Below, piece after piece: positions 4,623 to 5,401 of a DNA stretch of 64,000 nucleotides. The DNA comes from an uncultured Oscillospiraceae bacterium (GTDB lineage: Bacteria; Bacillota; Clostridia; Oscillospirales; Oscillospiraceae), in the NCBI GenBank assembly GCA_963557105.1, contig CAUWCX010000008.1, positions 143 to 64,142 on the forward strand, given 5' to 3'. The stretch's first letter is position 1; every line of letters starts with the position of its first letter. Made by a program: the position numbers and the translations under genes. A model generated the notes under the pieces. The model ran no database searches, was not told the origin of the DNA, and saw nothing but the letters and a program-made list of their open reading frames with translations.

Positions 4623-4641
4623 GCTCGCCTCCCTCCGGCCA

Positions 4642-4660
4642 TGTGTCCGAATTGGACACA
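4642..4660. repeat. Palindrome TGTGTCCGAATTGGACACA (related copy at 29042-29062)
   Basis: Read directly. Sits immediately upstream of the RBS of the head-closure gene. The second copy, GCGTGTCCAAATTGGACACGC, follows the repressor gene. Confidence 0.6.
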
Positions 4661-4680
4661 AAAAAGCCGCCTTGTCATCC

Positions 4681-4708
4681 TTGACAAAGCGGCTGGGTCT
4701 GCTATAAT
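4681..4708 (+). promoter_or_regulatory. Consensus sigma-70 promoter (antisense-RNA promoter, cassette 1)
   Basis: TTGACA (4681-4686), 16 nt, TGc TATAAT (4700-4708), on the strand opposite all surrounding phage genes. Confidence 0.55.
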
Positions 4709-4714
4709 GAAGAT

Positions 4715-4808
4715 AGAAAGGGCGCTGCTACAAGCGGTTAGCCCTGAACGTCGCTAAACAGATGATCTGCTAGCCGTCCGGTGGCCGCCGGGCGGCTAGC
4801 ACGCTTTT
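4715..4808 (+). ncRNA. Putative antisense RNA (type I antitoxin-like), cassette 1
   Basis: Bounded by the promoter above and hairpin GCTAGCCG..CGGCTAGC (4769-4800) plus TTTT. Overlaps the 3' end of the minus-strand peptide ORF. Ends are approximate. Confidence 0.35.
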
Positions 4809-4891
4809 GGGGCAAAGTAAACCGCGATCGTCATGACCACGGCGATACATGCCAGGAGACGCAGGAACTTTTTCCCACGCTCAGTACCCAT
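4796..4891 (-). CDS. 31-aa hydrophobic peptide (type I toxin-like), cassette 1
   Basis: MGTERGKKFLRLLACIAVVMTIAVYFAPKAC, SD GAAAGGGGGTGAGG upstream, own promoter at 4970-4998. Confidence 0.45.
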   Translation of the reverse strand: MGTERGKKFLRLLACIAVVMTIAVYFAPKAC

Positions 4892-4969
4892 CAGCCTCAC
4901 CCCCTTTCTCAAGGGAGTGGCAAACCGCCTGTTATGTAACAGCGCCCGGCCCCTCTCGGGGCCGTCTTC

Positions 4970-4998
4970 ATCCTAGCACAGGCGCCGCTTTTTGTCAA
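4970..4998 (-). promoter_or_regulatory. Sigma-70 promoter for peptide 1
   Basis: Minus strand: TTGACA (4998-4993), 17 nt, TAGGAT (4975-4970). About 70 bp including this promoter recurs at 5291-5360. Confidence 0.5.
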
Positions 4999-5018
4999 TT
5001 TTACGGAACCATCCGCTC

Positions 5019-5046
5019 TTGACAATGCGGCTGTGCCTGCTATAAT
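5019..5046 (+). promoter_or_regulatory. Consensus sigma-70 promoter (antisense-RNA promoter, cassette 2)
   Basis: TTGACA (5019-5024), 16 nt, TGc TATAAT (5038-5046). Near-duplicate of 4681-4708. Confidence 0.55.
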
Positions 5047-5052
5047 AAAGAC

Positions 5053-5145
5053 AGAAAGGGCGCTGCCGGCAAACGGTCAGCTCCTTACATGTGCGATGAA
5101 GTAACCGCCCATCTGTGGAGCCAGGGGGGCGGTTACTTCTTTTTT
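5053..5145 (+). ncRNA. Putative antisense RNA (type I antitoxin-like), cassette 2
   Basis: Ends in a 10-bp stem GTAACCGCCC/GGGCGGTTAC (5101-5136) followed by TTCTTTTTT. The terminator overlaps the stop codon region of peptide 2. Ends are approximate. Confidence 0.4.
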
Positions 5146-5219
5146 CCGAACTGGATGACCAGGTTCAGAAGGCCGATGATCACAAGACAGAACTGAAACA
5201 GTTCTGAATATGTAAGCAT
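5133..5219 (-). CDS. 28-aa holin-like toxin-type peptide (type I toxin candidate), cassette 2
   Basis: MLTYSELFQFCLVIIGLLNLVIQFGKKK. An in-frame ATG at 5225 would add 2 aa. GGAGGGGG SD upstream. The pattern (M-x-T-Y-E-x-L, hydrophobic core, KKK tail) resembles the Firmicute Hol-Tox family as I remember it. Confidence 0.5.
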   Translation of the reverse strand: MLTYSELFQFCLVIIGLLNLVIQFGKKK

Positions 5220-5327
5220 AAGCATCCCCCTCCTCTCTGGAGGGGGCGGAAGCCTACCCCCTCCGGGTGGAAGGAGCTTTACCGCCTACCGTTATGGCAG
5301 CGCCCGGCCCCTCTCGGAGCCGCCTTC

Positions 5328-5356
5328 ATCCTAGCACAGGCGCCGCTTTTTGTCAA
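5328..5356 (-). promoter_or_regulatory. Sigma-70 promoter for peptide 2
   Basis: Minus strand: TTGACA (5356-5351), 17 nt, TAGGAT (5333-5328). Confidence 0.5.
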
Positions 5357-5361
5357 TTTTC

Positions 5362-5398
5362 CCCTCTGCGTCCATCCGGGCGCAGAGGGCTTTGTTTT
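5362..5398. terminator. Hairpin plus T-tract separating the cassette region from the connector gene
   Basis: CCCTCTGCG (5362-5370) pairs with CGCAGAGGG (5381-5389), then CTTTGTTTT on the plus strand. Confidence 0.4.
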
Positions 5399-5401
5399 CC
5401 C

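Follow-up and report, generated by a model that had tools for sequence, protein, structure and literature searches.

A probable moron-type insertion carrying two tandem bsrG/SR4-class type I toxin-antitoxin-like cassettes in a prophage of an uncultured Oscillospiraceae bacterium

We analysed a 64,000-nucleotide stretch of DNA from an uncultured Oscillospiraceae bacterium (assembly GCA_963557105.1, contig CAUWCX010000008.1, positions 143 to 64,142; hereafter the window), concentrating on a gap of 779 nt (4623-5401) between two late genes of a prophage. We found that the segment 4661-5423 is probably a moron-type insertion in the 3' end of the gene for the head-tail adaptor Ad1, carrying two tandem cassettes that resemble toxin-antitoxin (TA) systems of type I and of the bsrG/SR4 class. 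A moron is an autonomous promoter-gene-terminator unit located between genes that are adjacent in related phages. The type I TA reading is well supported by comparative evidence from related sequences, and the cassettes are best filed under this kind and under the bsrG/SR4 architecture, with two putative new peptide families and one Hol-Tox-like family.

An insert at the end of the adaptor gene

The gene on the right of the gap (5402-5713, minus strand) belongs to phrog_40 and matches Ad1 with E = 1.6e-6. The gene on the left (4068-4622, minus strand) encodes a 184-aa protein of phrog_29848, a family of unknown function. An earlier note on this DNA had called the two a connector gene and a head-closure gene; the former stands as the adaptor Ad1, whereas the latter reaches the head-closure family Hc1 only at E = 0.05.

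Relatives were found through homologues of the 184-aa protein, which were followed to their contigs; a back-translated scan of genome contigs with this protein returned nothing. In two relatives (L167 and L171, 57-60% identity in the 184-aa protein) there is no insert, and the Ad1 gene abuts or overlaps the next gene. Homology to these relatives runs from 5469 to 5424, breaks, and resumes at 4660, which places the insert at approximately 4661-5423 and bears out the description of the cassettes as inserted. The Ad1 C-terminus, ...KLTEPDVSNLDTGQGVG, is replaced by ...KLTGGGGWF in the window. A remnant of the old Ad1 3' end is located at 4625-4660 (minus strand), where the sequence aligns to the part of L171 and L167 encoding the Ad1 C-terminus ...EPDVSNLDTGQGVG*. 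This remnant holds the palindrome GTGTCCGAATTGGACAC at 4641-4657 and is now the leader of the gene 4068-4622. A transposon origin was considered and set aside: the boundaries of the insert show no target-site duplication, and the insertion replaced about 10 nt of its target.

Other cassettes occupy the same site in closer relatives. The window carries a unit encoding a type A peptide and a unit encoding a type C peptide (types described below). L163, with 93% identity to the 184-aa protein of the window, has two type A units, one of which matches unit 1 of the window and sits in the other slot, and L165, with 79% identity, has one type C unit (MITYSDLIQTGILVVGIIALFIQANKKK). We found the phage of the window, tandem pair included, on 8 metagenome contigs. 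With different cassette combinations in close relatives and none in distant ones, the insertion site is a cargo hot spot. Like phage morons, the insert is an autonomous unit, with its own promoters and terminators, between genes that are adjacent in relatives; unlike them, its cargo is an RNA-regulated peptide cassette, and the number and type of cassettes vary at the site.

We also observed a HicB-like antitoxin gene (PF15919) in L165 at 3603-4001, on the opposite strand and two genes downstream of the cassette site. This gives the late region a second slot for accessory genes.

In other phages, the cassettes neighbour genes for endolysin amidases (L003, L109), a YqbQ-like tail protein, a glycine-rich tail protein, a LysM-GH18 protein and an integrase/Bro-N pair (L028). 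Thus, the connector region is one of many positions and not a special one. The earlier note had considered a TA module in a structural operon unusual. This was overstated, since the presence of morons in late operons is well known, as is that of type I TA modules in prophages (PMC7699646, PMC6563280).

The insert holds two units, each with a plus-strand promoter and predicted RNA, a convergent, weaker minus-strand promoter, and an open reading frame (ORF) for a peptide of 28-31 aa. We counted 6 promoter-like sites in 4000-6000, compared with 0.4 +/- 0.6 in shuffles. Two repeats are shared by the units: one of 63 nt (4940-5002 and 5298-5360, 97% identity) containing the minus-strand promoter, and one of 49 nt (4680-4728 and 5018-5066, 90% identity) containing the plus-strand promoter. 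The earlier note had described five features in each unit, namely a minus-strand promoter within a repeat, a structured leader, a tiny hydrophobic ORF, a near-consensus convergent promoter and a short plus-strand transcript ending at a terminator over the ORF end. We recovered all five, in both units, at or within a few bases of where it had placed them, with the leaders folding beside the Shine-Dalgarno (SD) sequence and both ORFs present in the ORF list.

In unit 1, the toxin mRNA promoter (4970-4998, minus strand) has the form TTGACA-17-TAGGAT with a 10/12 match, and the mRNA start was inferred from the position of its -10 box. The mRNA would open with a 5'-terminal hairpin (GGCCCCGAGAGGGGCC, 4948-4963, minus strand, single-sequence fold). 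The 5' arm of a closing helix follows (P1-like, 4921-4947, minus strand), whose 3' partner is the complement of 4720-4744, and then a hairpin with a GNRA loop that would sequester the SD sequence (CCACUCCCUU-GAGA-AAGGGGGUG, 4898-4920, minus strand), predicted by both single-sequence and consensus folds. The ORF of peptide 1 (4796-4891, minus strand) encodes the 31-aa type A peptide MGTERGKKFLRLLACIAVVMTIAVYFAPKAC. An intrinsic terminator of the toxin-1 mRNA, with a 13-bp stem and U6, was found by the terminator scan at 4655-4694 (minus strand); its stem contains the -35 box of the antisense RNA 1 promoter, an arrangement that recurs in other modules of the family. That promoter (4681-4708, plus strand) has the form TTGACA-16-TGcTATAAT, a 12/12 match with an upstream TG. 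The predicted antisense RNA 1, the antitoxin candidate, would span about 98 nt (4715-4812, plus strand, ends inferred from sequence; fold z = -3.8); its 5' hairpin would cover 4719-4745, and its terminator hairpin, at 4768-4801, would run into ACGCUUUU.

Within the structural operon, the strong minus-strand terminator at 4655-4694 precedes the start of the late gene 4068-4622 by about 35 nt. This leaves late transcription three ways past it: read-through, antitermination, or a restart downstream.

Unit 2 is organised in the same way. Its toxin mRNA promoter (5328-5356, minus strand, TTGACA-17-TAGGAT, 10/12 match) is followed in the mRNA fold by a 5' hairpin (5306-5321, minus strand) and by the 5' arm of the closing helix (5265-5305, minus strand), which pairs with the complement of 5057-5090. 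On the same strand, the SD sequence GGAGGGGG (5233-5226), an anti-SD sequence CCCCCUCC (5246-5239) and a second copy of GGAGGGGG (5264-5257) could form alternative hairpins within 5226-5264, as judged from the sequence itself and from the mRNA fold. The ORF of peptide 2 (5133-5219, minus strand, with an alternative ATG at 5225) encodes the 28-aa, type C, Hol-Tox-like peptide MLTYSELFQFCLVIIGLLNLVIQFGKKK, and its C-terminal KKK is encoded opposite the U-tract of antisense RNA 2. The promoter of this RNA (5019-5046, plus strand) again has TTGACA-16-TGcTATAAT, a 12/12 match and an upstream TG. The predicted antisense RNA 2 would run for about 95 nt from 5053 to 5147/5150 (plus strand; fold z = -4.3; inverted repeat I1); its 5' hairpin would cover 5056-5086, and its terminator hairpin, at 5098-5139, would run into U6. 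A simple terminator scan flagged the terminator of neither antisense RNA. At the right edge of the insert, a plus-strand terminator (5362-5399, 12-bp stem, T-rich tail), with an equivalent hairpin in other family modules, would stop plus-strand read-through out of the module.

A module family with a conserved mRNA fold

We searched the region against 50,697 phage records with blastn and obtained one partial match, MT836974 (L001), whose copy of unit 1 is 72% identical and lies among other genes; it was the starting point for a family. A motif made of the -10 box and the first small-RNA bases from the window was then scanned through three collections. It found 10 loci in IMG/VR, 21 loci in GTDB species genomes, all from Oscillospiraceae or unclassified Clostridia, and at least 120 loci in gut metagenomes. 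With L001 and the window, all scanned loci amount to at least 155 modules, of which at least 111 are unique. The genera with modules include Flavonifractor, Pseudoflavonifractor, Intestinimonas, Dysosmobacter, Oscillibacter, Acutalibacter, Provencibacterium and Hominicoprocola, and members are carried by the cultured strains Flavonifractor plautii ATCC 29863 (type B, L028), Intestinimonas butyriciproducens An565 (type C, L014) and Hominicoprocola fusiformis CLA-AA-H269 (type A, L031). Tandem pairs also occur at L021 and L163.

The order of elements is the same in all modules listed. A minus-strand terminator, whose stem holds the small-RNA -35 box, is followed by the small-RNA promoter, the small-RNA 5' hairpin, a variable spacer, a terminator hairpin over the ORF end, the ORF on the opposite strand, the SD hairpin, the leader, the toxin promoter and a plus-strand terminator. 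The -35 box TTGACA of the small-RNA promoter, which lies outside the search pattern, was found in 111/111 of the unique modules listed, with a spacer of 16-18 nt. A toxin promoter with TTGAC[AT] and a TAnnAT -10 box was found at the expected position in 67/86 family modules among the matches listed, and toxin -10 boxes are weaker than the small-RNA ones in the family. The most conserved part of the family is the small-RNA 5' domain, and the middle of the small RNA is hypervariable.

Several loci depart from this pattern. Two (L029 and L030) are orphan small-RNA genes, with promoter, 5' hairpin and terminator and no recognisable peptide ORF or leader downstream. Two others (L095 and L106) carry two small-RNA 5' motifs each, just 133 nt apart. 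In L013, whose module is identical to that of L005, an insertion of about 130 nt interrupts the closing helix in its 5' arm, with ...GGCTGACCGCC and ...CAACAGCGCC on either side; it may be a disrupted or re-engineered cassette.

Each toxin mRNA of the window folds into a 5' hairpin, a helix between leader and 3' untranslated region (UTR), an adjacent SD hairpin and the complement of the small-RNA terminator. The full-length folds have z = -7.3 for toxin 1 and z = -9.3 for toxin 2, the latter with 30 fold-back pairs. The fold-back also appeared in the minimum-energy folds of 37/37 representative toxin mRNAs, with 17-33 pairs in each, across all three peptide types. Likewise, the RNAalifold consensus of 24 type A mRNAs contained three predicted elements: fold-back helix, SD hairpin and 3' hairpin. 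Thus, the bsrG/SR4-type 3'-overlap architecture that the earlier note had proposed holds down to the structure of the mRNA, with a covarying 5'-3' helix beside the SD hairpin.

The earlier note had also asked for covariation analysis on homologous loci, and covariation was found in the closing helix, the SD hairpin and the terminator stem. In the type A alignment, 98.5% of the cells of the fold-back helix are paired, compared with 30-62% when the partners are slid. Double changes occur in 7 of its pairs, a count reached by 1/500 shuffles, and its covariation score was reached by 0/500, statistics that the relatedness of the aligned sequences inflates. The SD hairpin and the 3' terminator hairpin together are 96.3% paired, with double changes in 10 pairs (SD hairpin alone: 94.8% of cells, 2 pairs), and compensatory changes affect 8/11 pairs of the small-RNA terminator stem in the family. 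As the helix arms are also an inverted DNA repeat, we checked the direction of the mismatches. The non-Watson-Crick cells of the fold-back comprise 39 G-U (9 columns) versus 4 A-C (3 columns), an excess that argues that selection acts on the toxin-sense RNA and not on an inverted repeat in the DNA.

We also compared predicted duplexes between 5' and 3' arms. Cognate duplexes averaged -47.4 kcal/mol versus -41.8 kcal/mol for non-cognate ones, a difference of 5.6 with permutation p <= 1e-4; this permutation does not control for relatedness and is supportive, not decisive. The cognate duplex of toxin 2 (-53.0 kcal/mol) ranks 1 among 37 3' arms.

Between the small RNA and the mRNA, complementarity is perfect over the last codons, the 3' UTR hairpin and the closing helix's 3' arm, and the small RNA's 5' domain nearly repeats the leader of the mRNA. 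Treating the leader and this 5' domain as co-linear repeats fits type A and mis-registers types B and C, in which the full mRNA fold still forms the closing helix in another register. In thermodynamic predictions, masking the small-RNA target lowered the cost of opening the mRNA 5' end from 18.2 to 7.3 kcal/mol and raised that of opening the SD sequence from 9.4 to 11.0 kcal/mol on average. The predicted rise was 4-6 kcal/mol in 3/4 type C mRNAs, unit 2 included (5.7 to 10.2 kcal/mol), and unit 1 went from 11.0 to 11.6 kcal/mol.

Three peptide types under one scaffold

We found three unrelated peptide types under this one scaffold. Type A, represented by unit 1 of the window, has the form MG-(basic)-LRFLxC-(hydrophobic)-APKAC. 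Type C, represented by unit 2, has the form MxTYxELFQF-(hydrophobic)-KKK. Type B (MRITLHIGRFTVTIIVKSRNRHPGR) is not hydrophobic and occurs at other loci only. The earlier observation that the two toxins differ while their regulatory repeats are shared is thus true of the window and of the whole family. Peptide 1 has a best 15-aa hydropathy window of 2.65 and a net charge of +4; for peptide 2 the best window is 2.52 and the net charge is positive.

The type A reading frame is kept in 25/25 diverged homologues, with a codon-position entropy of 1.08, 0.56 and 1.15 at positions 1, 2 and 3. The low second-position value indicates constraint on the second codon position, as expected for hydrophobic codons. 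In all three types and in dozens of diverged copies, the ORFs are open and have an SD sequence at the correct distance. These patterns indicate that the cassette ORFs are conserved as coding sequences and are not incidental, and the outcome that the earlier note had named as refuting, generic repeats without conserved ORFs, is not what the family presents.

The earlier note had also placed the second peptide near the Firmicute holin-like toxins. Matches to Hol_Tox, phrog_3488 and Rfam BsrG point consistently in this direction, although the Hol_Tox and BsrG scores are below threshold; peptide 2 matches phrog_3488, annotated 'holin', with E = 0.002. A search of the peptides against Pfam Hol_Tox, as the earlier note had suggested, thus matched peptide 2 at sub-threshold scores and gave no match for peptide 1. 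We identified 5 type C homologues, and Hol_Tox matches 4/5 type C peptides at 15-20.2 bits, all below the cut-off of 23.3. Rfam BsrG scored 29.6 bits (E = 0.0013) on the type C locus L109, again below its gathering score of 55. We therefore take the Hol-Tox/BsrG affinity of peptide 2 as a consistent lead, with membership not established.

Protein databases hold few of these peptides. NCBIfam gave only weak, inconsistent matches for type C (PepG1, ComI), and PADLOC gave no match for any cassette peptide of any type. With type A and type C peptides as queries, tblastn found no match in the phage collection, for which the low-complexity filter is possibly responsible. In a collection of 15 billion proteins, six type A and type B peptides were looked up and none was present, whereas all three type C peptides looked up were present, unnamed or as 'hypothetical protein'. 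An exhaustive phmmer search with peptide 1 returned one representative at E <= 0.001 among 1.84 billion.

Type B was found at L006, L009/L010, L015, L024, L028 (F. plautii ATCC 29863), L036, L037 and L069. Its peptides have 25-27 aa, a GRAVY value of -0.27, a net charge of +6 and a beta-strand-like alternating pattern, and their C-terminal half is encoded opposite the entire small-RNA terminator stem. Type B does not look like a classical membrane toxin.

A further observation concerns L003 and L007, whose leaders, SD hairpins, 3' UTRs and small-RNA regions are identical (alignment A1). Many differences are found in the ~45 nt coding for the transmembrane segment (columns ~120-165), LVCFIIVLALMIYM versus LTCLLIALAVMIYI, and this pattern suggests recombination or diversification limited to the peptide core.

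Known systems, competing readings and phage setting

The closest known system is bsrG/SR4 of the Bacillus subtilis prophage SPbeta, from the TxpA/BsrG group. In the probed bsrG mRNA, nt 1-35 pair with nt 232-262 to form helix P1, the SD sequence is in the next stem-loop, and the terminator follows P1; when SR4 is bound at the 3' region, nt 1-33 become single-stranded and the SD helix grows from 4 to 8 bp, and decay of the mRNA is RNase III-dependent (PMC3834814). Our fold of the SPbeta bsrG locus gave the same layout as the probed mRNA. The window cassettes share with this system the prophage location, the convergent genes with a 3' overlap that includes the ORF end, an antitoxin promoter stronger than that of the toxin, and a hydrophobic peptide of ~30-38 aa with C-terminal lysines. 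They also share the 5'-3' closing helix, the SD stem-loop directly after its 5' arm, the terminator after its 3' arm, and an antitoxin complementary to the 3' arm, such that binding would free the 5' arm. In contrast, the small RNA here has ~95-105 nt (SR4 ~180 nt) and starts within the mRNA 3' UTR, with a -35 box that forms part of the toxin terminator stem. In place of Bacillus, the host is a high-GC member of the Oscillospiraceae, and three unrelated peptides share a single RNA scaffold. For peptide 1 (type A), no similarity to BsrG or TxpA was detected, and peptide 2 reaches Hol_Tox and Rfam BsrG at sub-threshold scores only.

Other systems are more distant. The txpA/RatA pair of the B. 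subtilis skin element has a 3'-overlapping antisense antitoxin, an RNase III-sensitive duplex and a prophage-like location (PMC6563280); however, TxpA has 59 aa and RatA ~220 nt, and no sequence match was found here. In hok/Sok and aapA1/IsoA1, the toxin mRNA is likewise locked by pairing of its 5' and 3' ends with the ribosome-binding site closed (PMC3834814, PMC8594479), but in these Gram-negative systems the antitoxin pairs at the 5' initiation region and activation needs 3' trimming. The antisense gene of the window cassettes instead overlaps the 3' end of the toxin gene, and its RNA would pair with the 3' arm and not with the 5' region. We had considered the fold-back helix as a novel hok-like feature and rejected this, as it is the known P1 helix of bsrG mRNA (PMC3834814), which lowers its novelty. 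The modules of the C. difficile prophages phiCD630-1 and phiCD630-2 also come from class Clostridia, with several per prophage and hydrophobic toxins with a basic tail (PMC7699646), but they belong to other families without sequence similarity, and no shared scaffold with swapped toxins has been described for them. We found no description of type I TA modules in Oscillospiraceae in the literature searched: a review of clostridial type I TA does not mention Flavonifractor, Oscillibacter or Ruminococcaceae, and the T1TAdb paper does not cover Oscillospiraceae (PMC8594479).

By sequence, each unit has the general features of a type I TA system, a hydrophobic ORF of <60 aa with SD sequence and promoter and an overlapping, predicted antisense RNA gene. 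The predicted folds add those of the bsrG/SR4 layout: a long 5'-3' helix, an adjacent SD stem-loop and an antitoxin complementary to the 3' arm. The design being the same, we infer the same mechanism. A weak sigma-A-type promoter would give a ~300-nt minus-strand toxin mRNA, whose leader would lock onto its own 3' UTR by the closing helix, with the SD sequence held in the adjacent GC-rich hairpin; this mRNA would encode a 28-31-aa peptide with one hydrophobic helix and basic residues. The near-consensus convergent promoter would yield an abundant ~95-nt plus-strand small RNA. In analogy to bsrG/SR4, the small RNA would pair with the mRNA 3' region and displace the leader, RNase III would cut the duplex, the freed mRNA 5' end would be unprotected, and the SD sequence would stay sequestered or become more so, so that no peptide is made. 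Should the small RNA be lost or titrated, the stable folded mRNA would yield a membrane-damaging peptide. We infer the transcripts, the RNase III cleavage, the peptide toxicity and the biological role by analogy only. Type I TA modules have been shown to stabilise C. difficile prophages, with a role in their maintenance (PMC7699646), and prophage stabilisation or competitor exclusion is by this analogy the likely role here.

Besides the inflated shuffle statistics, several points weigh against the type I TA assignment. The search motif was taken from the window, so the conservation of the motif itself is by construction. The earlier note had expected each small RNA to end at a strong intrinsic terminator, which holds for unit 2 (13-bp stem, 14-nt loop, U6), whereas in unit 1 a 15-bp stem is followed by ACGC and only U4. 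By terminator scan and mRNA fold, the toxin-2 mRNA has no convincing terminator of its own, and its transcript may read into unit 1. The C-termini APKAC and KKK are also constrained by the antisense terminator, which makes them weak evidence for peptide-level selection. Type A has no match in Pfam, NCBIfam, PHROG or PADLOC, and the same applies to type B. For peptide 2, Pfam PF16935 Hol_Tox scores 12.6 bits on the 30-aa form and 16.7 bits on the 28-aa form (cut-off 23.3), and Rfam RF01412 BsrG scores 15.5 bits (E = 0.32; gathering score 55) at 5124-5261 (minus strand). A hhalign comparison of the type C alignment A2 with BsrG (a sequence found 100% identical in SPbeta) gave a probability of 6% over 8 columns, the peptides being too short for a decisive outcome.

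The alternative that deserves the most attention would make the cassettes antisense-regulated phage membrane peptides of the lytic cycle, either accessory holin-like or lysis-timing factors or superinfection-exclusion peptides. Late read-through would swamp the cell with toxin-sense RNA, which would titrate out the small RNA and free the peptides late in infection. Both ORFs share the strand of the capsid, adaptor, sheath and tube genes, and this sense orientation, by which late transcripts could titrate the small RNAs, keeps a lysis-timing or induction-triggered role as a rival. The hairpin at the right edge terminates the plus strand only, so minus-strand late transcripts can enter the module; the 'holin' match of peptide 2, its sub-threshold match to Hol_Tox ('putative holin-like toxin') and the endolysin amidases that often adjoin cassettes in other phages fit as well. 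Yet the cassettes come with promoters and terminators of their own and are also found beside an integrase/Bro-N pair (L028) and beside neighbours that look chromosomal by eye, such as a peptidase-like gene (L014) and surface-protein and membrane-protein genes (L069). The strong terminator at 4655-4694 before the next late gene fits an insulated moron better, and the architecture matches a characterised TA system. We regard this alternative as unlikely, and it and the TA reading are not mutually exclusive. A bolder proposal, to which we give only a small chance, takes the family as a portable, toxin-agnostic RNA scaffold (closing helix, SD hairpin and an antitoxin with a leader-mimicking 5' domain) that has captured at least three unrelated ORFs and is shuffled among Oscillospiraceae phages by recombination at the shared arms. 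With the cassettes in sense orientation in the late operon, late transcription would titrate the antitoxin and make the cassettes a switch that nothing but prophage induction or superinfection would fire, a device for lysis timing or abortive infection and not a plain addiction module.

Two further readings place the function in DNA or RNA elements. In one, function would lie with the plus-strand small RNAs, which might target mRNAs of the host or the phage in trans, and the overlapping peptide mRNAs would be secondary. Their promoters are indeed the strongest signals of the region (12/12), and their 5' domain is the most conserved in the family, but this domain is the exact partner region of the mRNA's own leader and co-varies with it, the small-RNA middle is hypervariable, and no trans target was found, with no search aimed at one; we consider this reading very unlikely. 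The poorest account, in our judgement hardly credible, treats the units as non-coding intergenic repeats (bidirectional promoter/terminator, insulator or MITE-like elements) with incidental ORFs. Their ends are inverted near-copies (promoter and ~30 nt), like terminal inverted repeats, they occur at many unrelated sites, and ORF-less orphan small-RNA copies exist (L029, L030). Against it stand the open ORFs with well-spaced SD sequences and a coding-type codon-position pattern in three types and dozens of copies, the G-U versus A-C asymmetry that marks selection on one RNA strand, and the insert boundaries, with ~10 nt of target replaced and no target-site duplication.

Profile scans of the genes identified the surrounding region as the minus-strand late operon of a myovirus-like prophage. 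Family matches were obtained for the portal (7680-8972), capsid (5717-6988), sheath (2033-3229), tube (1595-2020) and tail assembly chaperone (1159-1530) genes, all on the minus strand. Rfam at gathering threshold found three tRNAs and nothing else in the whole window, with no match over the cassette region, where BsrG, over the unit 2 peptide mRNA, was the one weak match of thematic relevance. The tRNA genes (32314-32387, minus strand; 32587-32671 and 32709-32797, plus strand) adjoin a gene for a tyrosine integrase with an N-terminal zinc ribbon (31062-32195), and the stretch 31062-32797 probably represents the end of the prophage with its attachment region. At 28407-29042, an S24 LexA/CI-like repressor is encoded. 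A gene with a sigma-70 region 2 domain (23071-24036, minus strand) adjoins a DUF6076 gene (24033-25157, minus strand) inside the prophage and may encode a phage sigma factor for late genes. The prophage also contains a Druantia type I-like defence block (11889-21775, minus strand). Its 1755-aa protein (11889-17156) matches PADLOC DruE1 end to end (1728.7 bits, E = 0) and contains the domains DEAD, Helicase_C and MZB. The match of the protein at 17153-18181 to DruD1 is weak (E = 2.6e-10), and the two genes upstream of this pair (682 aa and 519 aa) have no convincing family match.

Taken together, the modules form an apparently undescribed family, common, almost unannotated and widespread in phages of Oscillospiraceae, a dominant human-gut group, whereas type I TA systems are poorly charted beyond Bacillus, staphylococci, enterococci, C. 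difficile and enterobacteria. The mechanism itself is familiar, and the modular scaffold is the twist. The family extends the bsrG-type mRNA architecture to distant, high-GC Clostridia, and conservation of the closing helix and of a 3'-arm-competing antitoxin at such a distance argues that the helix is functionally central. With the same scaffold under three unrelated peptides, it offers a natural test of scaffold modularity, and such 350-bp 'gaps' in the late operons of gut phages should be read as cargo in annotation.

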